A DNA stretch of 11,101 bases from a virus. Taxonomy: Duplodnaviria > Heunggongvirae > Uroviricota > Caudoviricetes. The stretch lies in the IMG/VR virus record IMGVR_UViG_2663763286_000016, positions 1-11,101 of that record, one strand, 5' to 3'. The position numbers and the translations under genes are program-made. Below, one piece after another: positions 1 through 11,101 of the stretch; position 1 is the stretch's first letter; every line of letters begins with the position of its first letter. The notes under the pieces were generated by a model. That model was not told the DNA's origin. It searched no databases and worked only from the letters and a program-made list of their open reading frames with translations.

Positions 1-424
1 CTTCCTGCAACAATTCCTGTGCGCTAATAACCATATCAACGGTGATGTTTTCACATGTGTCGAACTTAACCATGACAGCGTTCTGTACTTCAGGGGCCAG
101 CTTGTCAAAAGTGACGTTCATCGGATCTGATTCAGTCTCAACCGGAACAAAGGAAGCAGACTCCTCATCCCAGCGGTTTTCCTGCATATATTCAGCATCC
201 CATGAATCGAGGGCAGGGCGGGGTATGCCAGGTTTATCCTCGCAGATAATAAATTTATAAGCGCAGTCCTGAGCAGCCGGATAATGTTCCAGGAATTGCC
301 AGTGAAATTTTGCTCGAGCACGGCGTTCGTCGCCAGCTTCAATAGCTGTGGCTACAGCCACAGCGCCTTCTTCCCTTGTTGCCAGTTCGTCAGGAATGGC
401 GGCGCAAATAAAGACTTTACTCAT
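1..424 (-). CDS. Hypothetical prophage early-region protein, N-terminal 141 codons only; gene continues beyond the window start
   Basis: ATG at 424..422 (minus strand) and an open frame to position 1 with no stop, translated by hand (MSKVFICAAIPDELATREEGAVAVATAIEAGDERRARAKFHWQFLEHYPAAQ...). GAGG about 10 nt upstream. Not in the ORF track because it lacks a stop in the window. Family not recognised. Confidence 0.5.
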   Translation of the reverse strand, partial: MSKVFICAAIPDELATREEGAVAVATAIEAGDERRARAKFHWQFLEHYPAAQDCAYKFIICEDKPGIPRPALDSWDAEYMQENRWDEESASFVPVETESDPMNVTFDKLAPEVQNAVMVKFDTCENITVDMVISAQELLQE

Positions 425-517
425 TTTGTTTTAACCTCATGACAGATTTAAGGATGAACAAATCCCTGCCATTGCTGGCATATAAGAATGAAACCGGATA
501 TTTATTACGGAACTGTT

Positions 518-709
518 TTAAAGACCTGCCGGGATTTCGATATTATCCTGGTGAATAACTTTATCGACCGGGTAACAGTTACCGGGAATTTTCTGTTCGG
601 TTGCTGCAGTCATACTCTCCTGCATTGTCCTGTGAACACTGACTGCAATATCAACTGCCTCTCCGGAAACAAGAAAAACTGTCAGAACAAGTGCAAATGC
701 TGTATTCAT
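518..709 (-). CDS. Small hypothetical protein (about 63 aa) with a hydrophobic signal-peptide-like or transmembrane N-terminus
   Basis: Internal start of track ORF 518..763. ATG at 709..707 has an AAGGA Shine-Dalgarno 8 nt upstream and overlaps the stop of the upstream ORF in an ATGA arrangement. N-terminus MNTAFALVLTVFLVSGEA is hydrophobic. Start is uncertain; 718 and 763 are alternatives. Confidence 0.4.
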   Translation of the reverse strand: MNTAFALVLTVFLVSGEAVDIAVSVHRTMQESMTAATEQKIPGNCYPVDKVIHQDNIEIPAGL

Positions 710-894
710 TGCCAGCATCCTTTTTGTATCGGACGTAAACGGGCCAACATTGAAAGAATGCATATTTTATTTAATAGCTCCCGTTCGTGTTTTCTCTTGT
801 TAATGGCATCTTCAGTAAATACAGGGTTACTGATAGTGACACCAATTTCAAAACAACCTTCAGACGTATTAACGTTTGGTAATAACGTTTCCAT
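706..894 (-). CDS. Small hypothetical protein (62 aa), translationally coupled to neighbours
   Basis: ORF track 706..894. GAGGA 7 nt upstream of the ATG at 894, overlapping the end of the Rha gene; its stop overlaps the next start (ATGA). No family recognised. Confidence 0.4.
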   Translation of the reverse strand: METLLPNVNTSEGCFEIGVTISNPVFTEDAINKRKHERELLNKICILSMLARLRPIQKGCWQ

Positions 895-904
895 TATCGC
901 GTCC

Positions 905-1462
905 TCAACAATGAATTTTTAGTAATTGCTCCACAGTCATATTTTTAATTGCGCTCCGGTTTACAAGAGTCCAGCCTTGTTTCTCCAGATAAAACTGGAA
1001 GGTATCCAGGGTGCAGACCATTGCGCCGTCCGGAACGGTTTCAGTGAATTTGATATTGCCGTGTTCGTCGAGACGGATAACCAGGGTACGTCCGTCCCCG
1101 TGAATCATTTTGTCGGGAGACGGGGCGTTATTCTGGCGCAGTTCTTTCTCCATGCGATCGAACTCAGCGATGTAGGCTTCTTTAAATGCAGCGGCTTTTT
1201 TGCTGGTGAAGCCCATCACCAGGAAAACGAAGCCGTTTTTGGTGATTTGGTACATTGGGAGTTTGCGACCGGTTGAGTCGGTATATTCGCTCGACACAAA
1301 ATTGTGCTCAGTGAATTTTGCTGAACAGTCCAGATTGCGAATTTTATCCAACACTCGTTCGTGGCGTTTACCAAAGAACTCAGCGATCGCAATAGACGTA
1401 GTGACAGCGCGTCCATTTTCGATGGTTACGTCAGGGTGAGAAAGGGTATGGATAGTAGCCAT
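905..1462 (-). CDS. Phage regulatory protein, Rha family (antirepressor-like), about 185 aa
   Basis: N-terminus MATIHTLSHPDVTIENGRAVTTSIAIAEFFGKRHERVLDKIRNLD...YQITKNGFVFLVMGFTSKKAAAFKEAYIAEFDRME matches the Rha-domain pattern as remembered. ATG at 1462..1460 with GAGG 8 nt upstream. The longer track ORF (to 1759) would read through an intrinsic terminator, so the shorter start is preferred. Confidence 0.8.
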   Translation of the reverse strand: MATIHTLSHPDVTIENGRAVTTSIAIAEFFGKRHERVLDKIRNLDCSAKFTEHNFVSSEYTDSTGRKLPMYQITKNGFVFLVMGFTSKKAAAFKEAYIAEFDRMEKELRQNNAPSPDKMIHGDGRTLVIRLDEHGNIKFTETVPDGAMVCTLDTFQFYLEKQGWTLVNRSAIKNMTVEQLLKIHC

Positions 1463-1491
1463 GATGGCAGCCTCGATAGTCAGTTTAAATA

Positions 1492-1531
1492 ACTCACCAC
1501 CAAGGCTTTCCACGACCATAAGGGTGGTGAG
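1492..1531. promoter_or_regulatory. 9-bp perfect inverted repeat (CTCACCACC ... GGTGGTGAG, 22-bp spacer) just upstream of the Rha start
   Basis: Read directly from the sequence at 1492-1500 and 1523-1531. Function as operator or RNA hairpin is unknown. Confidence 0.3.
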
Positions 1532-1630
1532 ACGTACAGGGGTGGAAATACCGGTGACTACCGAAACCGGCCAGCCTTTCGGCTGCCCTGCACGCCCCAC
1601 CATAATCTGAATGTGGCTGTGCATTACGCA

Positions 1631-1655
1631 TAAAAAAACCGCATGAGCGCGGTTA
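1631..1655 (-). terminator. Rho-independent terminator for leftward transcription
   Basis: On the minus strand: AACCGC-GCTCAT-GCGGTT hairpin (5-6 bp GC-rich stem) followed by a run of seven T (plus-strand A run 1632-1638). Lies between the pL-like operon and the Rha gene. Confidence 0.6.
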
Positions 1656-2297
1656 TGCGCAGTAGTCATCATCGGGTTTCCACGCCCGGCACCCGCTTTA
1701 TGAGGTGCAGGTGCACTATAATTCCACCCGTTCTGGTTTTCAATAGCTACATTCAACATTTTCTCTTACCCTTCATCACCGAAGTGAACTTTGTTGATGC
1801 AGTGCCTGGTGCCTCCAGGTGACGTTAACCAGTTAACAATTAACGCCGGATACAGAGAATCCACCCATAACACTGTTTTTGGTTTTAACTGTTCCGCGTG
1901 CGCTGAGCCGCATTCACCGCATCACAAAATTCACTTTAAAAAGGGCGGACATCAGTTCATGGGCAAACAGATGCCGCCAAACGTCACCAGAAAATTGATA
2001 ACAGAGGGCGTTGCAGCGGGGTTGTCACTTAAGCGTATGGTCAACCTGACAACCCGGTGTCCTCAACGGGGAAGGAATAACCCCGCCATACTTACCGCCG
2101 CGCCATTTCGCGGAGTGCCACAACCGGAAGCGCACGGTCGACGAAAATTTAACGACAGGCTATCTATGAACCAGCTACCTCGCCGTGCGCTTTCGCGTTA
2201 TGGTCTGACTTTTCAGGGAAATATCCTTTCAGTAAACTGTCAGTGCCGGATGCTTACCCGTGTCCGGCGCACGCACTCTACCTCACCCGTGAATAAA

Positions 2298-2684
2298 TTA
2301 ATGATTAATTGATATTTTATAGGTGGATTCAACTTTCCCATCGGATGTGTGATGCTTTAAATCACAGGAATTAATACTGCTTGCTGTAAAGTGATTTTCA
2401 AGGGGGGCTATTCGAATCCCTTTCTTTTTCATTAACAGGCCAAATCCCTTATTAATGATGTCCATTAATTCCAGAAAGTATTTTTCATGTAAATCCTGGT
2501 TATCAGAGAGCTGCTTCTCTTCGTATAGCCCGATAAAGGCTCGGCGCACGTTACCGGATATATTATCGATGGTTTCTTTTTCTACGGTACTCAGGTCAGG
2601 AGTAGCCAATTGAGAACGAACTATATTCGCTGCCATTTCCTGGAATGGTATTGGTAAATCTTTAAATTCCATCGTCAACCTCAT
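2298..2684 (-). CDS. Hypothetical early-left protein (about 124-128 aa), AT-rich gene
   Basis: ORF track 2298..2684. ATG at 2684..2682 overlaps the upstream stop (TGATG); an alternative ATG at 2672 has a GAGG Shine-Dalgarno (MEFKDLPIPFQEM...). No family recognised. Confidence 0.55.
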   Translation of the reverse strand: MRLTMEFKDLPIPFQEMAANIVRSQLATPDLSTVEKETIDNISGNVRRAFIGLYEEKQLSDNQDLHEKYFLELMDIINKGFGLLMKKKGIRIAPLENHFTASSINSCDLKHHTSDGKVESTYKISINH

Positions 2685-2836
2685 CAGTCAGTGTTTCTGG
2701 CTAACCAGCGACGCGCGCCAGATTCGGTTTTAAGCGTTTTGCTTTTGGTATACGTCATTGCGGTGAACGTACCGTCCTGGTTTGGGAACACGCCGCACAC
2801 CAGAGATTCGTTGTTGCCAAGATCGATAGTATCCAT
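2684..2836 (-). CDS. Small hypothetical protein (50 aa), first gene of the pL-like operon
   Basis: Internal ATG at 2836..2834 of track ORF 2684..2890 (MDTIDLGNNESLVCGVFPNQDGTFTAMTYTKSKTLKTESGARRWLARNTD), GAGG 5 nt upstream. The track start at 2890 is a GTG that would sit only about 17 nt below the predicted transcription start. Confidence 0.45.
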   Translation of the reverse strand: MDTIDLGNNESLVCGVFPNQDGTFTAMTYTKSKTLKTESGARRWLARNTD

Positions 2837-2886
2837 GCTGACCTCATTTCCCCTTAACGCCGGGGTAGCGGAACTGTTTGCTGAGA

Positions 2887-2900
2887 ACACCGTGCGGTGT
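2887..2900. promoter_or_regulatory. 14-bp palindrome ACACCGTGCGGTGT in the leader of the pL-like transcript
   Basis: Perfect 6-bp inverted arms with a 2-nt centre, read directly. Could be a protein-binding site or an RNA hairpin. Confidence 0.3.
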
Positions 2901-2913
2901 CTTGGTGGAGATT

Positions 2914-2942
2914 AATTTAGAATAACCTAACAAATGTGGCAA
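2914..2942 (-). promoter_or_regulatory. pL-like sigma70 promoter directing leftward transcription
   Basis: On the minus strand: TTGCCA (plus 2942..2937), 17-bp spacer, TAAATT (plus 2919..2914). One TTAG-N6-CTAA palindrome overlaps the -10 and spacer, a second lies just upstream of the -35. Confidence 0.5.
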
Positions 2943-2967
2943 GTATTTTTTGTTAGATTGGTCTAAC
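2917..2967. promoter_or_regulatory. Two putative operator palindromes of TTAG-N6-CTAA type (OL-like)
   Basis: TTAGAATAACCTAA at 2917-2930 and GTTAGATTGGTCTAAC at 2952-2967. The same motif recurs twice between the repressor and cro-like genes. Confidence 0.5.
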
Positions 2968-3004
2968 AAAAAGAGTGAGGGAATCTAAGTAACTGAAAGG
3001 AGTG

Positions 3005-3412
3005 TTATTTTATTGATTTGTTTTTACGTGCTTTAAGCATTTCTTCGAAGAGTTTATTGAAATTCTCTACTCTTGCGCGCATTTCAGACAGTAAGGCTTC
3101 CTGCTCGGAGGAGGGAAGAGCATCGAATAATTCGATCAATTCTTTGTGGCTGGGAGTTAACTCGGTTTCCACATGAAGTTCTTGTGCTGGCACTGGTGCC
3201 TTGTCTTCGTCACCAAACATTAGCCATGTAGGCGAGCACTTCAGCGCATCAGCTAAAGCAAATAACCGCTTCCCGACCGGTTGGGTTTCGTCTCTTTCCC
3301 ATTGTGAAATTGTGACGTGAGCTACCCCAGCGAGGCGTGCAGCTTCTCGTTGTGTTAGGCGTAATTCTTTTCGTCGTGCCAGAACTCGCTGGCCTAGGGT
3401 TCTTGTATCCAT
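3005..3412 (-). CDS. Phage repressor, XRE-family helix-turn-helix, 135 aa, no S24 peptidase domain
   Basis: N-terminus LGQRVLARRKELRLTQREAARLAGVAHVTISQWERDETQP is a classic Cro/CI-type HTH. It is divergent from the cro-like gene. No Shine-Dalgarno before the ATG at 3412 and a TAGAAT -10 about 9 nt upstream suggest a near-leaderless transcript, as for lambda cI from pRM. Confidence 0.8.
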   Translation of the reverse strand: MDTRTLGQRVLARRKELRLTQREAARLAGVAHVTISQWERDETQPVGKRLFALADALKCSPTWLMFGDEDKAPVPAQELHVETELTPSHKELIELFDALPSSEQEALLSEMRARVENFNKLFEEMLKARKNKSIK

Positions 3413-3414
3413 AG

Positions 3415-3478
3415 TTAGGTAATTCTAATTTTTCTTGACTTAGGTATCCCGCGCACATTACCGTTAGGAATATCTAAC
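3415..3478. promoter_or_regulatory. OR-like region: two TTAG-N6-CTAA palindromes plus candidate divergent promoters
   Basis: TTAGGTAATTCTAA at 3415-3428 and GTTAGGAATATCTAAC at 3463-3478. Minus-strand TAGAAT -10 (plus 3427..3422) overlaps the first palindrome. Plus-strand TTGACT at 3435-3440 is a candidate -35; its -10 was not convincingly resolved. Confidence 0.45.
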
Positions 3479-3492
3479 AAGAGGGGGCTTTG

Positions 3493-3720
3493 ATGCTTAA
3501 AGTTGACGCAATTACTTTTTTTGGCAGCAAAACAAAACTTGCCAATGCCGCAGGAGTGAAACTGGCAAGTGTTGCTGCATGGGGGGAACTGGTTCCTGAA
3601 GGTCGCGCGATGCGCCTGCAAGAGGCATCCGGCGGGGAACTTCAGTACGACCCCAAAGTTTATGACGAATATCGTAAGGCAAAGCGGGCGGGGCGGTTGA
3701 ACAATGAAAATCACCCCTGA
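3493..3720 (+). CDS. Cro-like DNA-binding protein (YdaS-like), 75 aa
   Basis: ATG at 3493 with GAGGGGG 5 nt upstream (the track start at 3490 is TTG). Sequence LKVDAITFFGSKTKLANAAGVKLASVAAWGELVPEGRAMRLQEASGGEL fits the YdaS/Cro pattern as remembered. Position divergent from the repressor. Confidence 0.75.
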   Translation: MLKVDAITFFGSKTKLANAAGVKLASVAAWGELVPEGRAMRLQEASGGELQYDPKVYDEYRKAKRAGRLNNENHP

Positions 3721-4225
3721 ACAGGTTTGTGAGGCTCTGGATGCCTGGGTATGCCGACCAGGAATGACACAGGAGCAGGCGACGATATTAATCACGGAAG
3801 CATTCTGGGCTCTGAAAGAACGCCCGAACATCGATGTTCAACGCGTCACGTTTAATGATGGCGAGGTTGATCAACGGGCGTTGGGCGTTAACCGGGTGAA
3901 GATATTCGAACGCTGGAAAGCTATCGACACCAGGGATAAGCGGGAAAAATTCACGGCGCTGATTCCGGCAATTATGGAGGCTATCCGGATCAGCGATTTC
4001 AGGTTGTATTGTGAAATTACTGACGGAAAAAGCATTACGTACATGATCGCCGGGTTAAACAAAGAATATGGTGATGTGGTGGAGTCCGGGCTGCTTTTTG
4101 CGGATCCATCTGTTGTGGAACGTGAGACTGACGAGCTTATAGAAAAAGCTATTGCTTTCAAGCATGCGTATCGTCAGCAATACCAACAAAAAGCTGGATG
4201 GAATTATGAGCCTTCTTTTTGCTGA
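3704..4225 (+). CDS. YdaT-like / cII-position early regulator, 173 aa
   Basis: ORF track 3704..4225, overlapping the cro-like stop. Central ALIPAIMEAI region resembles YdaT-family proteins of the Rac prophage (recollection, moderate certainty). Confidence 0.65.
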   Translation: MKITPEQVCEALDAWVCRPGMTQEQATILITEAFWALKERPNIDVQRVTFNDGEVDQRALGVNRVKIFERWKAIDTRDKREKFTALIPAIMEAIRISDFRLYCEITDGKSITYMIAGLNKEYGDVVESGLLFADPSVVERETDELIEKAIAFKHAYRQQYQQKAGWNYEPSFC

Positions 4226-5045
4226 ACGCCCACTGGTTATAAACACACAGCTTGCGATGAAGATTGGCTTAAATGAAGCCATTGTGTTGCAGCAGTTGCA
4301 TTACTGGTTGAGAGATACCAGTTCCGGTATAGAATGTGACGGGGTTCGCTGGATTTATAACACAACAGAACAATGGCTGGAACAGTTCCCGTTCTGGTCA
4401 GAGTCAACGTTAAAACGCGCATTTGCAAGTCTGAAAACGCTGGGGCTTTTGCGTTGCGAAAAGCTCAACAAATCAAAGCGTGATATGACTAATTTTTACA
4501 CGATTAATTACGAGAGTGAGCTTTTAGATGGTGGCAAAGTGAGCGAATCCATCAGGTCAAAATGCGCCGCTCCATCAGGTCAAAATGACACGATGGAAGA
4601 GGTCAAAATGGCACGCTCCATTGGTTCAAAACGACCCAATGTCATCGGGTCAAAATGGCCTGATGATCTTACAGAGAATACAACAGAGATTACTACAGAG
4701 AATAAAAACACTTCTCGTCCGGAAGCTTCGCAACCGGACCCGCAGACGGCTGAACAGGATTTTTTAACCCGACACCCTGACGCGGTTGTGTTCAGTGCGA
4801 AAAAACGCCAGTGGGGAAGTCAGGAAGATTTGGCGTGCGCACAGTGGATCTGGGGACGAATCGTGAGTCTTTACGAGCAGGCTGCCAGCGATGATGGCGA
4901 GATCACGCGACCGAAAGAACCAAACTGGACCGCATGGGCCAATGACGTGCGCACAATGCGGATGCTGGATGGCAGAAGCCACAGACAAATTTGCGAAATG
5001 TTTGGTCGGGTACAGCGAGATCCATTCTGGGTAAAAACATCATGA
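4206..5045 (+). CDS. Replication initiation protein, lambda O-like, with the origin iterons inside the gene
   Basis: N-terminal winged-helix-like region (EAIVLQQLHYWLRDTSSGIECDGVRWIYNTTEQWLEQFPFWSESTLKRAFASLKTLGLL), then a linker that encodes the iteron array. Start uncertain: ATG at 4206 (MSLLF...) is preferred over the track start at 4152 to limit overlap with the upstream gene. Confidence 0.65.
   Translation: MSLLFAERPLVINTQLAMKIGLNEAIVLQQLHYWLRDTSSGIECDGVRWIYNTTEQWLEQFPFWSESTLKRAFASLKTLGLLRCEKLNKSKRDMTNFYTINYESELLDGGKVSESIRSKCAAPSGQNDTMEEVKMARSIGSKRPNVIGSKWPDDLTENTTEITTENKNTSRPEASQPDPQTAEQDFLTRHPDAVVFSAKKRQWGSQEDLACAQWIWGRIVSLYEQAASDDGEITRPKEPNWTAWANDVRTMRMLDGRSHRQICEMFGRVQRDPFWVKTS
4548..4657. 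repeat. Iteron array (about five direct repeats with core GGTCAAAATG, 22-25 bp spacing): probable replication origin
   Basis: Cores at 4555-4564, 4578-4587, 4601-4610, 4623-4633 (degenerate GGTTCAAAACG) and 4648-4657. The 17-mer TCCATCAGGTCAAAATG occurs identically at 4548 and 4571. Followed by an A/T-rich stretch with two TACAGAGAATA repeats (4670-4704). Confidence 0.7.
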
Positions 5046-5170
5046 GCCCGTCAAAGCTTCGCGAAAAATGGGACGACCTGGTCATCCGCCTGGGGCGTTC
5101 ACCTGTACAGTGTTGTGTGAATCATATTTCTGAACCGGATACCGAAATTCCGCCTGGTTTCAGGGGATAA
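5042..5170 (+). CDS. Small ORF (42 aa) overlapping the O-like stop (ATGA); possible remnant or small replication-associated protein
   Basis: ATG at 5042-5044 overlaps the TGA at 5043-5045. Translated by hand: MSPSKLREKWDDLVIRLGRSPVQCCVNHISEPDTEIPPGFRG. Below the track size cutoff. No family recognised. Confidence 0.3.
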   Translation: MSPSKLREKWDDLVIRLGRSPVQCCVNHISEPDTEIPPGFRG

Positions 5171-5210
5171 GTGGTGATTTTAGGGCATAAAGTAATGTTC
5201 AGGAGGACTT

Positions 5211-5618
5211 ATGGCAAAAGTATTTACAAAGGAAGAGCGGGAAAAAATTAAAGGACAGGTGGTGGAACTCGTGCGCCAGAGCGGTCGTGAGACGTTACGG
5301 CAACTGGAAGCTAAAACAGGTGCGACAAGATATCTGATGAGCGTTCTTGCCAGAGAGCTGGTTGCCAGTGGTGATGTATATCACTCTGGCTATGGGGTGT
5401 TCCCGTCAGAACGGGCTCGTAAGGACTGGCAAAACGCCCGCAAAAAACTCTCGAGGGCAAAGGTGAAGAAACCTGTTGTGGTTGATCCGGGCCTTATCTG
5501 GACATTACCCGACGGAGAAATACGCCGCTACGACAGGCGTATGAACATAATCTGTCGCGAGTGCCGGAAGAGCGAAGTTATGCAGCGTGTATTGGCGTTC
5601 TATCAGGGATATGCCTAG
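5211..5618 (+). CDS. Hypothetical phage protein, 135 aa
   Basis: ORF track 5211..5618 with a strong AGGAGG 4 nt upstream of the ATG. Basic protein; no family recognised. Confidence 0.65.
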   Translation: MAKVFTKEEREKIKGQVVELVRQSGRETLRQLEAKTGATRYLMSVLARELVASGDVYHSGYGVFPSERARKDWQNARKKLSRAKVKKPVVVDPGLIWTLPDGEIRRYDRRMNIICRECRKSEVMQRVLAFYQGYA

Positions 5619-5664
5619 AATTGTCACAGGTAATGAAATTAAAGAGTATTGGTTCGGATATGAA

Positions 5665-5693
5665 TTGACATTTTCGCGGCACAGAGCTAAAAA
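5665..5693 (+). promoter_or_regulatory. Candidate sigma70 promoter in the AT-rich region upstream of the SIR2-like gene
   Basis: TTGACA at 5665-5670, 17-bp spacer, TAAAAA at 5688-5693. The 370-bp intergenic region contains several other -10-like hexamers. Confidence 0.3.
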
Positions 5694-5986
5694 TAGCCTA
5701 CTTGTTGGTTTTGTGTGAAAAGCAGACATTTTGAGGCTCAGGATTTGTTATCAAATAAGACCAATACTTATCTATATTAATACACATTAAATACTGTGCA
5801 ATACATTATTGCATTTTATTAGATAAGCGATATTTAGGGAAAAGAAAAGTCATAGAAAACAGGCCGCTATTTGTTGTTGGATTTTATAGGCTATATCTAG
5901 ATTATCTTGCCACTGCGGTCTCTGTTTACCTAACAGCTTGGGCTTCTTTGCATGCAAGTTTGTAATAACAAGTGTAATCAAACGGA

Positions 5987-7018
5987 ATGTCTATTAATCC
6001 TAAACTTAAGCGTATCGCGCGACGCTATCCAGCGTTATTCCAATATGAGTCCCCCTATATGGCAAGAAAATTAATAATATTCGGCAACGGTCTCGGTATG
6101 GCTTTAGATCCTGCTCACTTCTCCTTAGACAGAGCGTTGGAAGAAATTTGGCATCGCCCCAATTTTTTAAAAGATATCCACAAGCAACTTATCGAGCGTT
6201 GTCTTCAGCGGCAAGGTCCACCAGAAGGAGAACATGAGTTGGATACCCTTCACCAGGCTGTCACATATTGTAAAGCTCTTGCTCAAATTGGAGAGGGGAA
6301 CGTGCATTGGCTTACTGACGATGGACTAAACTTCCCCAAAATTACCGCCACTTATATTCACAAAGTTGCAACCAGGTTGCATAATTACGATAAAGGTTTG
6401 CCACAAAGATTCGAAAATGCGCTTGTGGAGTTTGTAAAGAACACACACTCACATATCGCGACATTAAACTATGACAAATTATTATACAATTCATTCATAG
6501 ATAATGATATATTCAACGGGTATGATGGGGTTTTAGTTGATGGGATGCTAAGCCACGGATTTTCCTCTGCAGCGCTCGAACGGAAATACAATCGTAGGTT
6601 TGGTTATTATTTGCACTTGCATGGTTCACCACTATTTATTAATCAGCATGAAAATGTTTTAAAACTTTCACGCTCACAACTTACTCTTGACATAGATGAA
6701 CCTAGTGAGCATATAGTGTTAACTCATATAAAAAGAAAACCGTCAGTTATAGCAGCATCTAATGTTCTTTCTACGTACTGGGATTATTTGCAGTTTGCAT
6801 TATTTGAATCAGAAGAAATAATATTGTTTGGTTACTCTGGTCTCGATATTCACCTTAACCTGCTTATTCGACCTTACCTAACCTCTAAGCCTTTAAGAGT
6901 AATTGAGTGGAGCGGTGCTGGTGAACAAAACGCTCGTGAGATATATTGGAAAAACCAGTTGAGACGGGAAGTTACTGTAATTAGGTTGGATAACATCACT
7001 GATTTTATTGATTGGTAG
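5987..7018 (+). CDS. SIR2-like protein (SIR2_2 / defence-type sirtuin fold), 343 aa; candidate NAD-consuming defence effector
   Basis: Glycine-rich N-terminal motif LIIFGNGLGMAL, TLNYD motif (residues 159-163), HLHGS (210-214) and a C-terminal LFGYSGLD motif, matching the spacing and residues of SIR2_2-family domains as in ThsA/DSR proteins (from memory). The gene looks markedly AT-rich. Start uncertain: 5987 or the in-frame ATG at 6059. Confidence 0.65.
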   Translation: MSINPKLKRIARRYPALFQYESPYMARKLIIFGNGLGMALDPAHFSLDRALEEIWHRPNFLKDIHKQLIERCLQRQGPPEGEHELDTLHQAVTYCKALAQIGEGNVHWLTDDGLNFPKITATYIHKVATRLHNYDKGLPQRFENALVEFVKNTHSHIATLNYDKLLYNSFIDNDIFNGYDGVLVDGMLSHGFSSAALERKYNRRFGYYLHLHGSPLFINQHENVLKLSRSQLTLDIDEPSEHIVLTHIKRKPSVIAASNVLSTYWDYLQFALFESEEIILFGYSGLDIHLNLLIRPYLTSKPLRVIEWSGAGEQNAREIYWKNQLRREVTVIRLDNITDFIDW

Positions 7019-7088
7019 CGCAATGCGAAGTTAAAGAGGCAGCCTCATATTTATCAGAGCTGGTGTACGTCCAATACAGGAGGTTATC

Positions 7089-7178
7089 GTGCTGGTTCTC
7101 AAATGCGCGCTGGCTATTGCGGCTGTAGTGGCAATTTATTGTCTTGCTATTGTTCTTATGGATCGCCTTTCTGATTGA
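7089..7178 (+). CDS. Small hydrophobic peptide (29 aa, single predicted transmembrane helix)
   Basis: GTG at 7089 preceded by CAGGAGG with a 5-nt spacer. Hand translation VLVLKCALAIAAVVAIYCLAIVLMDRLSD, stop TGA at 7176-7178. Lies 70 bp downstream of the SIR2-like gene on the same strand. Not in the ORF track (too short). Confidence 0.45.
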   Translation: MLVLKCALAIAAVVAIYCLAIVLMDRLSD

Positions 7179-7279
7179 TTTTATATTGGCGAGGTGACGG
7201 GAGTTAAGTAGAATTGCTGCGGGTGCTTGAGGCTATCTGCCTCAGGCATGAACACCAAAAGGCAGATAGAGAAAAGCCC

Positions 7280-7342
7280 CAGTTAACATTACGCGTCCTG
7301 CAAGACGCTTAACATTAATCTGAGGCCATATCTATGCGACAC
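7280..7342 (-). ncRNA. Putative Sok-like antisense RNA (hypothetical; extent approximate)
   Basis: Candidate minus-strand promoter: TTGACC (plus 7376..7371), 16-bp spacer, GCTAAT (plus 7354..7349). This would start an antisense transcript covering the start of the short leader ORF, as in hok/sok loci. No clear terminator was identified. Confidence 0.2.
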
Positions 7343-7393
7343 ATAGAGATTAGCCTCTTACGGACCAAAAGGTCAAGGAGAAGCAGGCTATGA
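7334..7393 (+). CDS. Short leader ORF (19 aa) coupled to hok; mok-like by position
   Basis: ATG at 7334 sits inside a hairpin (TCTATG cgaca CATAGA). The TGA at 7391-7393 overlaps the hok ATG at 7390-7392. Confidence 0.3.
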   Translation: MRHIEISLLRTKRSRRSRL

Positions 7394-7545
7394 AGCAGCA
7401 AAAGGCGATGTTAATCGCCCTGATCGTCATCTGTTTAACCGTCATAGTGACGGCACTGGTAACGAGGAAAGACCTCTGCGAGGTACGAATCCGAACCGGC
7501 CAGACGGAGGTCGCTGTCTTCACAGCTTACGAACCTGAGGAGTAA
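7390..7545 (+). CDS. hokD: Hok/Gef-family type I toxin, 51 aa (matches HokD/RelF as remembered)
   Basis: Hand translation MKQQKAMLIALIVICLTVIVTALVTRKDLCEVRIRTGQTEVAVFTAYEPEE. AAGGAG 9 nt upstream. Upstream leader is rich in long-range complementary segments. Confidence 0.88.
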   Translation: MKQQKAMLIALIVICLTVIVTALVTRKDLCEVRIRTGQTEVAVFTAYEPEE

Positions 7546-7614
7546 GAGACCCGGCGGGGGAGTAATCTCCCGCCACCTCTGATGTGCCAGGCATCCTCAA
7601 CGCACCCGCACTTA

Positions 7615-7635
7615 ACCCGCTTCGGCGGGTTTTTG
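7615..7635 (+). terminator. Rho-independent terminator after hok
   Basis: CCCGC-TTCG-GCGGG hairpin followed by TTTTT. The identical 20-mer recurs at 9449. Confidence 0.7.
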
Positions 7636-7645
7636 CATTGTCTGG

Positions 7646-7674
7646 TTGACAAAAATAGAAAAATGCGAAAATAT
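7646..7674 (+). promoter_or_regulatory. Candidate promoter for the 216-aa / HTH-ImmA module
   Basis: Perfect -35 TTGACA at 7646-7651; the -10 is imperfect (AAATAT at 17 bp or TATGTG at 20 bp). Sits immediately after the first terminator copy. Confidence 0.35.
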
Positions 7675-7709
7675 GTGGTTTACGAATTCTAAAAAAAGCG
7701 AAACTTGAA

Positions 7710-8360
7710 ATGAATGAAAATCAGTTAGCTCCTTGTTGGGAATTTCAACCTTATCTTGCTGAAAACTATGTTCGCCACTTGTTGGCGGAGATCGCTAACG
7801 TACTTGAGCAGCTGTACTATCATAAGCACGCATTAGACAGCAACTGGTCTGAAGGTGTAAGGGCTTATGATTGGGTCAGAAATCATCTTATTCAAAATGA
7901 AGATGCAATTCCTGGCCTTGAGATGATTTCCAAGGGGTTGGACTATGTAGTTGCTTTAAATAAAGTTCCGCTACAATTTACCAAAGATTGCATTAATAAC
8001 CCCAAAAAGAAACATCGTCTGCGTCGAAATAAAGTAGAGTATGAGCAGCTCTCATTGTTTGGTGATGTTGAGGCTGAGCAAGATATTACATGGCGAGTCA
8101 TAGCTGAGCCTTTTTTATCCGAAGAGGGCGATGGTGAATTAGAGTCCACACTGCCTCGTTGGGAGGTAGCTCTTGTTGGATTTAATACTTATGGTGCTCA
8201 GATTAGTATAGTTTCTCATCAATCTACAGCATCGATGCCGCTTATGCCTCTTGATTATAACACACTCCCTGACGAAGCGGAGATTAATAAGGTGCCTCTT
8301 CGTCGGCGTACGAAGGATAAAGATTTGGATGTGAGCAGTGATGGAACATCAGGTGAATAA
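7710..8360 (+). CDS. Hypothetical protein, 216 aa, first gene of a two-gene module; contains a QLSLF pentapeptide
   Basis: ORF track 7710..8360. No family recognised. Residues 113-117 are QLSLF, flanked by a basic run (NPKKKHRLRRNK) and an acidic run. The 3' end overlaps the start of the next gene. Confidence 0.65.
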   Translation: MNENQLAPCWEFQPYLAENYVRHLLAEIANVLEQLYYHKHALDSNWSEGVRAYDWVRNHLIQNEDAIPGLEMISKGLDYVVALNKVPLQFTKDCINNPKKKHRLRRNKVEYEQLSLFGDVEAEQDITWRVIAEPFLSEEGDGELESTLPRWEVALVGFNTYGAQISIVSHQSTASMPLMPLDYNTLPDEAEINKVPLRRRTKDKDLDVSSDGTSGE

Positions 8361-9444
8361 CTTCACTGAGTATCGGGGTGATAAGCTCAAACTAGCGAGA
8401 ATGGCTGTTGGGCTTTCTTGTGAAGAGTTAGCCGAAAAAATTGGCAAGACAAAGCAATTCGTTAGCAAACTGGAGAAGGGGTGCAGGCCATCGGAGCAAT
8501 GTCTTGAGTTAATATCTTCAGCGCTTATGATTAAGTCCAGTTTTCTTTTTACTGAACGAAAATACGCTCTGGAAAGTGATGTCTGCCATTTTCGGAGTAA
8601 GAAGTCCAGGACTCAAACGCTGACTAATAGTGTATTGGCCAGGGCTGAGATTCTTAATATTATAATTTCTGCTGTTGAAGGTGAAATCGAATTTCCTGAC
8701 GTTAACATACCGGAGCACCCAGGGGCTGAATTACTTACTCCGAATGATATTGAGCGAGTGGCAGAAGATTGTCGCCGTGCCTGGAATTTAGGTCTTGGCC
8801 CTATATCATCAATGGTTAAATTGGCGGAGAGTTTAGGGGTAATCGTTGCGCATGTTACGGGAGTCGATGATCGTGTTGATGCTTTTACTGTTCACAATAA
8901 CAGGCCTGTTATCATCAGGAACAATGTTAAAAAAAGCATATGTAGATTTCGCTCTGATTTAGGTCATGAATTAGGGCATTTAGTAATGCATGAGGGCATA
9001 ACGACAGGTGATAAACTTACGGAATCACAAGCCGATCACTTTTCGAGCGCCTTATTAGTTCCCAGGTTATCTTTCATTAAAGAATTTCCACGAATACGAG
9101 GTAAGCAATTCGACTGGAATGCTCTGGTTGAATTTAAACTTAGATGGAAAATCAGCCTTAAAATGTGTATTTATCGAGCCAGCGCATTAGGCTTATTGAC
9201 CCAGGAACAGGCAAGAACTGGCTATATGCATCTTAATTCCAGAGGGTATACGAGAGTTGAACCTGGTGATGAACTTTTGCGCCCTGAAGAACCCGGCATG
9301 CTGGCCGAGGCGATTGAAATGCTGGATGATGCAACCTGGCTAAGAATTCTTATGAAAACTGGCTTGAGCCAAGATTTAATTCGTGAGTTGTTCTCCATCA
9401 ACAGACCTATTACAAATCCAAGAAATATTTTCCAGATTGTTTGA
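8341..9444 (+). CDS. Fusion of XRE-family HTH and ImmA/IrrE-type zinc metallopeptidase (COG2856-like), about 367 aa
   Basis: N-terminal HTH (LKLARMAVGLSCEELAEKIGKTKQFVSKLEKG) and an HEXXH motif (HELGH, residues 210-214, around nt 8965-8979). ATG at 8341; the track start at 8338 is GTG. Confidence 0.8.
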   Translation: MEHQVNNFTEYRGDKLKLARMAVGLSCEELAEKIGKTKQFVSKLEKGCRPSEQCLELISSALMIKSSFLFTERKYALESDVCHFRSKKSRTQTLTNSVLARAEILNIIISAVEGEIEFPDVNIPEHPGAELLTPNDIERVAEDCRRAWNLGLGPISSMVKLAESLGVIVAHVTGVDDRVDAFTVHNNRPVIIRNNVKKSICRFRSDLGHELGHLVMHEGITTGDKLTESQADHFSSALLVPRLSFIKEFPRIRGKQFDWNALVEFKLRWKISLKMCIYRASALGLLTQEQARTGYMHLNSRGYTRVEPGDELLRPEEPGMLAEAIEMLDDATWLRILMKTGLSQDLIRELFSINRPITNPRNIFQIV

Positions 9445-9448
9445 GTAT

Positions 9449-9475
9449 ACCCGCTTCGGCGGGTTTTTTGTTTTT
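9449..9475 (+). terminator. Rho-independent terminator after the HTH-ImmA gene
   Basis: The same CCCGC-TTCG-GCGGG hairpin, followed by TTTTTTGTTTTT. Starts 5 nt after the stop codon. Confidence 0.7.
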
Positions 9476-9488
9476 ATTTTCAACGTGT

Positions 9489-9518
9489 TTGAAGTTTTGG
9501 ACGGTGCCAGAATAGAAT
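9489..9518 (+). promoter_or_regulatory. Candidate promoter for the downstream genes
   Basis: TTGAAG at 9489-9494, 18-bp spacer, TAGAAT at 9513-9518. Confidence 0.3.
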
Positions 9519-9553
9519 CAAAAATACTTAAGTAGCGCGCAGGGAGAAGAGGG

Positions 9554-9862
9554 ATGGACCCCGAACAGGGGGAGTGCTATTTATCTGGAAGGATTCTGTT
9601 GATGAAAATCGAAGAATTACGTGAAATTTTTAGTGAAGATGGCCTCTATACTGTGCGCGTTGAGAATGGCGCTATTGTCAGCCACTGCCGTATTAAATGT
9701 TTACAGTCTCTACATAGGAAGAGTGGAGCTGCGTTAATTTACTTTGTGGATGGACTTGTGACGGATGGTTTTATTTTGCGTGAAAATGAATTTGTCACAT
9801 CATTGCAGTCTCTGAAAGAAGCTGGGCTTAAGGCTGGTTTTTCTGCTTTTGAAGATGAGTGA
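9554..9862 (+). CDS. Hypothetical protein (102 aa; 86 aa if started at 9602)
   Basis: ORF track 9554..9862. AGGGAG 7 nt upstream of 9554; alternative ATG at 9602 with GGAAGGA upstream. No family recognised. Confidence 0.5.
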   Translation: MDPEQGECYLSGRILLMKIEELREIFSEDGLYTVRVENGAIVSHCRIKCLQSLHRKSGAALIYFVDGLVTDGFILRENEFVTSLQSLKEAGLKAGFSAFEDE

Positions 9863-9928
9863 ATTCATCTACAATTCAGCGCAGGACTGAACCCCTGTTG
9901 AGTAACACTGTGCCACCGGAGAAAGCCG

Positions 9929-10207
9929 ATGGCGCAAAATTCCAGATCACACAATTCTGATAATTCAGCCGTCTTTGCCAGCAGGCACGGGCGGCGCTCT
10001 CACGCATTTAAATCTGATTGGTACCAGCATCCCCCATGCACTGAAGAACAGGCCGAATGGCTGATTCAGTGTTACCGCAGGCGCGGATACGAGGTTAAGA
10101 AAGCCCTCAGTCTCGATTATCGTCACTGGATAATCTCTGTCAGGCTTCCTTATTCCGAACGCCCACCGCGTCCGTCCCGCACATTCCAGCAACGCATCTG
10201 GAGGTAA
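9929..10207 (+). CDS. Hypothetical prophage protein, 92 aa (sits where rem lies in Qin-like prophages)
   Basis: ORF track 9929..10207. GGAG 7 nt upstream. Its stop lies 1 nt before the start of the next gene. Confidence 0.55.
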   Translation: MAQNSRSHNSDNSAVFASRHGRRSHAFKSDWYQHPPCTEEQAEWLIQCYRRRGYEVKKALSLDYRHWIISVRLPYSERPPRPSRTFQQRIWR

Positions 10208-10208
10208 C

Positions 10209-11101
10209 GTGCGGGTATTACTTCGACCGGTTCTGGTACCGGAACTCGGGCTGGTGGTCCTTAGGCCGGGCCGTGAATCCATGCAAGTATTTCATAACCC
10301 TCGAGTGCTGGTGGAGCCTGAACCGAAAAGCATGCGCGGTCTGCCGTCCGGAGTCGTCCCTGCCGTTCGCCAGCCGCTGGTGGAAGACAAAACATTGCTG
10401 CCGTTTTTCAGTAACGCACGGGTGATTCGTGCTGCTGGTGGTGCTGGTGCATTGTCTGACTGGCTGTTGCGCCATATTAAATCCTGCCAGTGGCCACACG
10501 GCGATTATCACCATAGTGAAACCGTCATTCACCGTTATGGTACCGGCGCAATGGTGTTGTGCTGGCACTGCGACAACCAGCTGCGTGACCAGACATCCGA
10601 ATCACTCGGGCAACTTGCTCATCAAAACCTGTCAGCATGGATGATTGACGTCATACGCCATGCAATGAATGGCACGCAGGAGCGGGAATTGTCGCTGGCT
10701 GAATTATCCTGGTGGGCGGTCTGCAATCAGGTGGCGGACGCGCTTCCGGAGGCAGTATTACGTCGTTCTCTGGGGTTACGTGCGGAAAAAATCCGCTCCT
10801 TGTACCGCGAAAGCGACATCGTACCGGGAGAGCAGACCGCCATCAGCATACTGAAACAGCGCACAAAAAATCTTGCGCCGCTGCCTCACACCCACCAGCA
10901 ACAGAACCCACCACAGGAAAAGACGGTGGTCAGCATTGCCGTTGATCCGGAGTCTCCGGAATCCTTCATGAAACGACCTAAACGTCGCCGCTGGGTAAAT
11001 GAGAAATACACACGCTGGGTAAAGACACAGCCGTGTGCGTGTTGTGGTAAGCCAGCGGACGATCCTCATCATCTGATTGGTCATGGTCAGGGTGGAATGG
11101 G
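10209..11101 (+). CDS. DUF968 / YdfU-like prophage protein, 5' portion; gene continues beyond the window end
   Basis: GTG at 10209 with GGAGG 4 nt upstream. Open frame to the window end, translated by hand with no stop (VRVLLRPVLVPELGLVV...CACCGKPADDPHHLIGHGQGGM). The Cys/His-rich C-terminal motif and overall sequence resemble YdfU-type proteins as remembered. Not in the track because it lacks a stop. Confidence 0.65.
   Translation, partial: MRVLLRPVLVPELGLVVLRPGRESMQVFHNPRVLVEPEPKSMRGLPSGVVPAVRQPLVEDKTLLPFFSNARVIRAAGGAGALSDWLLRHIKSCQWPHGDYHHSETVIHRYGTGAMVLCWHCDNQLRDQTSESLGQLAHQNLSAWMIDVIRHAMNGTQERELSLAELSWWAVCNQVADALPEAVLRRSLGLRAEKIRSLYRESDIVPGEQTAISILKQRTKNLAPLPHTHQQQNPPQEKTVVSIAVDPESPESFMKRPKRRRWVNEKYTRWVKTQPCACCGKPADDPHHLIGHGQGGM

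Follow-up and report, generated by a model that had tools for sequence, protein, structure and literature searches.

Why should a short terminator stand twice, letter for letter, on both sides of a pair of phage genes? The question is raised by a DNA stretch of 11,101 nucleotides (nt; positions 1 to 11,101 of IMG/VR record IMGVR_UViG_2663763286_000016, hereafter the window), which belongs to a lambdoid prophage of the Qin/Rac type and matches Escherichia coli O55:H7 DEC5B at 99.7-100% identity. In this window the sequence ACCCGCTTCGGCGGGTTTTT follows the toxin gene hok and then again, about 1.8 kb further on, the gene rmrA, and the segment between the two copies encodes a pair of genes recognized as the RosmerTA system. 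The reading which we favour, with a probability of roughly two in three, is that a slot for morons (a concept reviewed in "The moron comes of age", PMC3594210) lies behind the hok terminator and that the terminator itself serves to join sequences through a short stretch of homology, an arrangement that can be compared with the PeSL cassettes of T4-type phages.

Two terminator copies and the cassette between them

An exact string match on the plus strand places the 20-mer at exactly two positions of the window, 7615-7634 and 9449-9468, as stated in the original prediction, which was made from the letters of the stretch; no third copy was found in the window even with three mismatches allowed. 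The repeat is exactly 20 nt long, sequences flanking copies 1 and 2 are unrelated, and both copies are the top-ranked terminator-like sites in a terminator scan of the window. The 20-mer folds as an intrinsic terminator with a C(UUCG)G hairpin (6-bp stem, UUCG tetraloop, -10.5 kcal/mol), and the two 20-mers are taken as working copies of this one hairpin, with termination being predicted. The 20-mer was not encountered in any of 200 shuffles of the window, but shuffled sequence is the wrong null model for it, the 19-mer being a very common phage terminator. Each copy had also been described as standing immediately after a stop codon. This is true of copy 2, which begins 4 nt past the rmrA stop codon TGA at 9442-9444, and not of copy 1, where the hok stop codon (7543-7545) lies 69 nt upstream and the TAA at 7613-7615 terminates no open reading frame (ORF). 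The features of the insert and of its two borders are as follows.

7615-7634, plus strand: terminator copy 1 (exact 20-mer; terminator scan with stem at 7614-7631; 3'-terminal hairpin in the fold of the hok mRNA; the one copy that every empty site has)
7635-9469, plus strand: segment of 1.83 kb lacking in empty sites, RosmerTA moron plus terminator (comparison of junctions with loci L001-L004)
7644-7684, plus strand: putative cargo promoter/operator, GGTTGACA (with -35 element TTGACA at 7646-7651) and a second element GGTTTACG at 7677-7684 (inferred)
7710-8360, plus strand: rmrT, RosmerTA toxin, 216 aa (PADLOC RmrT, 4.6e-25; PHROG 5786, 8e-85)
8338-9444, plus strand: rmrA, RosmerTA antitoxin, 368 aa (PADLOC RmrA, 6.2e-105; Pfam HTH_3 and Peptidase_M78)
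9449-9468, plus strand: terminator copy 2, end of the rmrTA unit and putative joint to the backbone (exact 20-mer; terminator scan; followed by the same sequence as the empty-site terminator)
9489-9862, plus strand: resumption of the backbone, with a promoter-like site at 9489-9518 (scan, TTGAAG-18-TAGAAT) and a rem-like ORF at 9554-9862 (PHROG 340)

Four related prophages show the site without the insert. In E. coli O157 180-PT54, JNE132847, KTa008 and K-12 DH5alpha (the Qin prophage) nothing but one terminator separates hok from rem, and the gene beside hokD in empty sites is annotated either as rem or as a hypothetical protein. The left flank of the empty-site terminator is the left flank of copy 1, while its right flank (GTTTTTATTTTCAACG...) is the right flank of copy 2. 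The expectation that relatives would carry hok, one terminator and the genes found after position 9476 is therefore borne out in four genomes with matching flanks. The flanks of the nearest empty sites are only ~95% identical to the window. Copy 2 is followed by six T (window position 9469) vs five in the single terminator of rem-type empty sites; the additional T stems either from a small slippage or from the T-run of the cargo itself, of which it would be a remnant.

RosmerTA is a two-gene anti-phage toxin-antitoxin system (Millman et al. 2022, bioRxiv 10.1101/2022.05.11.491447). RmrA combines an XRE helix-turn-helix (HTH) domain with an M78/ImmA zinc peptidase carrying a HELGH motif, and RmrT had no match in Pfam. 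The two genes overlap by 23 nt; the RefSeq start of rmrA is the ATG at 8341. The putative -35 element TTGACA is situated 11 nt past the T-run of copy 1, its paired -10 element is weak and a strict consensus promoter scan made no call. GGTTGACA (7644-7651) and GGTTTACG (7677-7684) form direct repeats 33 nt apart, and a GGTTGAC pair with a spacing of 31-34 nt is found also in two RosmerTA cassettes (L151 and L192) which are otherwise dissimilar in DNA. We assign this pair to the cargo because it is duplicated in all three RosmerTA promoters, and most simply it is a candidate operator for RmrA; the motif is missing from the Doc and HTH-ImmA cargos described below. The guanine-cytosine fraction is 0.39-0.44 in 7601-9400, vs 0.51 in the hok block and 0.51-0.57 beyond 9800, with the rem region being low too.

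The 1.83-kb insert is thus, by its predicted features, a promoter-to-terminator moron encoding a known defence system. The locus had been proposed as a moron insertion point, which proves right because the insert is a self-contained unit of a putative promoter region, two RosmerTA genes and a terminator. DNA of the module was found in 237 of 5,426 complete E. coli genomes, and no record of the deposited-phage collection contained it at a coverage of at least 80%. In one of the genomes, E. coli FDAARGOS_1249 (H81), the module is interrupted by an IS5 transposase.

A slot behind hok and its cargos

Is the bracketed arrangement peculiar to this insert or a property of the site? Viral contigs were scanned with the hok 3' end plus terminator and E. 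coli loci were added, which gave 128 analysable slots. Most of them, 96, are empty; their two main backbones are A, which has rem, and B, which lacks it. The remaining slots have other backbones or carry cargo. Six classes of cargo were distinguished: three RosmerTA types, a pair of separate HTH and ImmA-like peptidase genes, and two Phd/Doc variants. Five of the six are mutually without DNA similarity. The RosmerTA cargo of the window exists also as a 94% variant, and two further RosmerTA cassettes have no DNA similarity to it, one of them with a different RmrT family.

Every cargo starts 7-16 nt past the hok T-run. Where the sequence of the cargo end is available in occupied slots, it is the same hairpin in 22 out of 22 cases (16 exact, 6 with one mismatch), and this hairpin is fused to a flank that also adjoins the hok terminator in empty sites. 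At least five right-hand backbones are joined to cargos at the hairpin, and the same cargo can be found on different backbones: the RosmerTA of the window is joined to A and to B, Doc to B, C, D and E. In a comparison asking whether the cargo travels with hok or with the backbone, the hok alleles proved to be mixed relative to both. Bracketing is better described as a rule of the site than as the footprint of a single event. The original prediction had offered two possibilities, recombination at or next to an existing terminator and a portable module boundary, and had named the duplicated arrangement with unrelated content as an argument against a specific insertion footprint. Unrelated cargos (Phd/Doc, HTH plus ImmA and other RosmerTA) do recur in the same bracketed arrangement, which speaks against the footprint of one event and supports the portable boundary.

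The copy at the cargo end is not uniform. Its loop varies with cargo lineage (UUCG, UACG or CUCG) and the length of the repeat is 20-22 nt. In loci L006 and L007 copy 2 reads ACCCGCTACGGCGGG, with the cargo-type UACG loop, unseen in hok terminators, and a TTTTG tail of the backbone B type, and it looks like a hybrid. A copy of the module that is not linked to hok (L008, from E. coli KL53) is 80% identical to that of the window, has the putative promoter region conserved and carries at the same place after rmrA the terminator AACCCGCTATATGCGGG, with the same stem and a UAUAU loop. The cassette therefore appears to carry this terminator family wherever it is located, and inside the slot the predicted cargo terminator is that of hok or nearly so. 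This 80%-identical RosmerTA variant (L008 type, 5 genomes) is the only hok-less cargo, and all representative loci examined of the Doc cargo, which is carried by 125 genomes, are hok-linked. A scan of genome contigs with the hok 3' end plus terminator gave matches only in Escherichia, Shigella and two metagenome-assembled genomes, and no new cargo classes.

Some variations were observed in individual slots. Terminator copies are not kept identical everywhere: in Doc-bearing loci of E. coli O121 RM8352 (L233; 1972, 2815) and L232 (1855) the hok terminator copy is degenerate and the cargo copy intact, and the degenerate forms in some Doc slots read ACCTACTTCGGCGGTTTTT or have GGGG in place of GGG. 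In KL53 (L008; 4319-4341, 4466-4485) the RosmerTA module is trailed by a methyltransferase gene fragment which itself ends in ACCCGCTACGGCGGGTTTTC, i.e. another copy of the hairpin family beside the remnant of a DNA methyltransferase gene. In Escherichia albertii NBRC 107761 (L239, L235) the hok terminator is followed by a cargo-like start, TGCATTAGTCTGG, and then by unrelated sequence at a contig break, a switch which is probably an insertion of an insertion sequence.

The unit upstream of the slot has its own sharp borders, and its features are the following.

7201-7634, plus strand: hok/sok cassette, a sharp-ended conserved block (matches in 4,727 of 5,426 complete E. coli genomes)
7221-7392, plus strand: sok/hok leader region (Rfam RF01794, above the gathering threshold, 107.5 bits, E=3e-24)
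7390-7545, plus strand: coding sequence of the HokD-type toxin hok, 51 aa (Pfam HOK_GEF, 1.2e-23; annotated hokD in all related records)

Genome matches to the hok block start at query positions 1-3 (about 7201 of the window) and stop at the end of the T-run. All features of a hok/sok type I toxin-antitoxin system are present, i.e. the Hok coding sequence, the sok region, pairing of the 5' and 3' ends and the terminator. In the predicted fold of the full-length hok transcript (7213-7634; z=-9.4) a long-range helix closes the 5' and 3' ends, and the terminal hairpin, which is copy 1, begins 3 nt past it. Because the hairpin directly trails this helix in the fold, copy 1 is predicted to be the native 3' end of the hok/sok transcript.

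On the other side of hok, a low-GC stretch directly upstream of the hok/sok block encodes a SIR2-like protein of 343 aa (window 5987-7018, plus strand; Pfam SIR2_2, 1e-5; matches to PADLOC Aga_SIR2 and PDC-S21 are weak). Related prophages have QueH, paa, DUF551 or relBE at this position, and the left side therefore behaves as a second variable slot which possibly also holds defence cargo. Further away, in the early-left region of the prophage, a C4 antisense RNA (window 1520-1607, minus strand, 79 bits) and the Hfq-binding RNA isrK (window 1632-1708, minus strand, 64 bits), both above the Rfam gathering threshold, are neighbours of each other.

The terminator as a proposed joint, and other explanations

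The favoured reading can be put as follows. A cargo slot, usually empty, lies behind the hok terminator in Escherichia lambdoid (Qin/Rac-like) prophages. In the window the rmrTA unit sits exactly between the T-run of the hok terminator and the rem promoter, and copy 2 would end the transcript of this separate unit, in which rmrT and rmrA have a putative promoter/operator of their own; since there are terminators on both sides, rmrTA could be expressed from a repressed prophage with hok and the downstream early genes left undisturbed. In a filled slot the hairpin at the cargo end is the fusion point to whichever backbone comes next. The terminator of 20-22 nt would then serve as a short-homology joint, and recombination between copies, unequal between phages or within one genome, would join a terminator-ended cassette to a new backbone and would also be able to delete the cassette precisely, restoring the empty site with a single copy. 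An installed cassette would spread among similar prophages through homologous recombination in the flanks, hok on the left and rem on the right, and the hairpin would have its role in joining to other backbones and presumably also in the original insertion. Phage-encoded recombinases are known to use homologies which are short or diverged, also in exchanges of phages with defective prophages, among them Qin and Rac (PMC3945230). The anatomy of the locus, the empty sites, the nature of the cargo, the return of the hairpin at every cargo end, the several backbones and the breakpoints of recent exchanges are seen in the sequences; the crossover at the terminator itself, the enzymes involved and the origin of the first bracketed arrangement are parts of this model that we infer.

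Several points weigh against the model. Three loci (L140, L020 and L181) carry the cargo at 99.8-99.9% identity to the window, and the near-identical tract extends from ~7400-7447 to ~9637-9650. A drop of identity placed exactly at the terminators was sought between such cargo-sharing prophages and was not found, the tract reaching ~170-215 nt into hok and rem, which indicates that recent spread of the cargo among rem-type backbones is a consequence of flanking homologous recombination and not of crossover at the terminator. The length of 20 nt is short for efficient homologous recombination, considering the requirements of lambda Red. An annealase gene was looked for in the annotation of this prophage in DEC5B, and only an integrase and an 805-aa exonuclease, with no annealase beside it, were present. 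The hairpin is also very common in unrelated phages and some of the identity could be convergent. Finally, the first formation of the left junction, from the T-run to the cargo promoter, is left unexplained by the model.

The alternative which survives best, although we regard it as unlikely, is that hok and each of the morons independently use the very stable C(UUCG)G hairpin, which would have no role in recombination; the cargo would be inserted by illegitimate recombination, as in classical moron accretion, and spread only via homology of flanking genes. A scan of viral contigs for the 19-mer found at least 120 loci, and 105 of the 125 matches listed have unrelated flanks without hok, with the hairpin lying downstream of 64 protein families. 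Because the hairpin is so common in phages, identity of the two copies alone is weak evidence for duplication, and it is the comparative evidence, not identity, that gives the repeat its meaning. The module outside the hok context (L008), with its own terminator of the same stem, and the recent exchange breakpoints inside hok and rem are also in accordance with independent terminators. Against this stands the background in the loci themselves. Outside the slot the hairpin is used at none of ~102 distinct terminator-like sites, one mismatch allowed (129 hok-bearing loci, 1.28 Mb), and a CCCGC/GCGGG stem with other loops is used at 12 of them. If each cargo had arbitrarily brought its own terminator, the same hairpin at all 22 cargo ends of five unrelated classes would not be expected from such a background. 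Independent use would also not readily account for cargo and backbone being fused at the hairpin in at least five backbones, nor for a loop which differs outside the slot (L008) and matches or nearly matches that of hok inside it.

The wide occurrence of the hairpin deserves two additional observations. In viral contigs L012-L131 a GGAG Shine-Dalgarno sequence and a start codon are found at most 45 nt downstream of 33 of the 105 listed non-hok hairpins; many of these 33 read, by eye, TTATGCCYGGAG, and the downstream genes belong to 22 protein families. The hairpin together with a ribosome-binding site looks like a widespread intergenic unit of unrelated phages. Some hok-less viral contigs possess two hairpins, spaced by 280 nt in L089 (4388, 4668), 585 nt in L124 (3610, 4195) and 5.2 kb in L053 (5952, 11171).

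A more radical possibility, which we hold to be quite unlikely, is that the C(UUCG)G hairpin is a genuine recombination site of a cassette system in lambdoid prophages. Defence and toxin-antitoxin morons built as promoter, genes and terminator would, through recombination of two hairpin copies, excise as small circles and re-integrate at any other copy, the enzyme being perhaps a phage annealase or some unrecognised hairpin-specific activity. If that were true, such traffic, and not only convergence, would be part of the reason why the hairpin is so widespread in unrelated phages, and moron accretion would have a mechanism both defined and targeted, similar to that of integrons but with no integrase.

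It is very unlikely, in our view, that this lineage started from the bracketed state and that the "empty" sites are secondary precise deletions between copies. Direct repeats of 20-22 nt permit such deletions, and empty and filled slots do occur with hok alleles at most 1.5% apart. Empty sites are nevertheless the large majority and are present on several backbones, each of which is also filled with different cargos, and the closest of them have flanks no nearer to the window than given above. This possibility concerns only the direction of change and is compatible with the terminator acting as a joint.

Least probable, to the point of being hardly credible, is a target-site duplication or att-like core, i.e. 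a transposase or site-specific recombinase recognizing and duplicating the hairpin, in the manner of integron attC recombination or of elements which have terminators as their target. A direct repeat does flank the insert, it is single in the empty site and as a perfect hairpin it could fold in single-stranded DNA. Yet none of the cargos contains a transposase, an integrase, a reverse transcriptase or a ribozyme, terminal inverted repeats are missing, the repeat is too long for a transposon duplication and differs between cargos, with a copy 2 loop that tracks cargo lineage as fits a cargo-borne terminator, the cassettes have promoters, unlike integron cassettes, and the only integrase annotated in the 30 kb around the locus in DEC5B is the prophage's own, ~9 kb off.

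Relation to known systems and meaning of the slot

The cassette resembles morons of lambdoid phages in being an independent unit with a putative promoter and terminator of its own, located between genes that are adjacent in related phages, in its different base composition and in its predicted benefit to the lysogen. Such morons were reportedly described in phages HK97 and HK022 by Juhala et al. in 2000. According to PMC2839356, illegitimate recombination is believed to bring in classical morons, with no conserved sequences at their borders, whereas here all cargos of the slot end in the 19-20 nt hairpin of the preceding unit.

The closest parallel is with the PeSL (promoter-early stem-loop) mobile regulatory cassettes of T4-type phages (Arbiol et al. 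2010, PMC2839356). In these a conserved stem-loop plus promoter flanks indels of accessory genes between close relatives; it stands once where the genes are absent and twice where they are present, and the proposed mechanism is that copies recombine with each other, which gives rise to mini-circles. Both have in common a stem-loop terminator which flanks accessory indels and is present once when the site is empty, and an inserted unit that is transcriptionally insulated. PeSL is, however, a composite of ~100 nt with a conserved sigma-70 early promoter, whereas in the hok slot only the hairpin with its T-run, 20-22 nt together, is common, the promoters vary by cargo and what comes after the T-run changes from cargo to cargo and from backbone to backbone. 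The hosts differ as well, lytic T4-type phages in one case and a temperate lambdoid prophage in the other. A PeSL-like boundary of terminator plus promoter was considered on the basis of the motif GCATT..CTGGTTGACA, which follows the T-run in several cargos and has a similar counterpart in backbone B, and was rejected since GGTTGAC belongs to the RosmerTA cargos, for which GGTTGACA is specific, and Doc and HTH-ImmA cargos do not have it.

As in integrons with their attC cassettes, one slot takes many unrelated small cassettes, each ending in a site that forms a hairpin. The differences are that there is no IntI here, that a perfect terminator of 14 nt stands in place of an imperfect attC of 57-141 nt, and that the cassettes have promoters of their own. 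With respect to RosmerTA as described by Millman et al. (2022), a toxin and an HTH/zinc-peptidase antitoxin in a two-gene operon, the proteins of the window are unremarkable; what is new is only the genomic setting, and defence by this pair is predicted. Defence hotspots in P2-like prophages and in P4-like satellites, reportedly described by Rousset et al., are similar in that one set place in the genomes of a prophage family accommodates alternative defence or toxin-antitoxin systems; the slot behind hok belongs to another phage family and to another position.

A description of a cargo slot at the hok terminator was not found in the literature searched, the coverage of which was incomplete. 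What appears to be a new regularity is that each cargo of the slot ends in the same predicted terminator, which is the point of fusion to several backbones. That morons and defence systems enter phage genomes and leave them intact is usually explained by rare events of illegitimate recombination on which selection then acts. A concrete and testable alternative is provided by the present locus, a defined slot with at least six toxin-antitoxin or defence cassettes and a common 20-nt end hairpin. The arrangement of a hok terminator followed by a second terminator copy is in addition a simple search key with which Escherichia prophages can be screened for new accessory and defence cargos. Should crossover take place at the hairpin, this would account for insertions being precise, transcriptionally insulated and reversible, and the PeSL idea would hold for temperate lambdoid prophages as well as for lytic T4-type phages.

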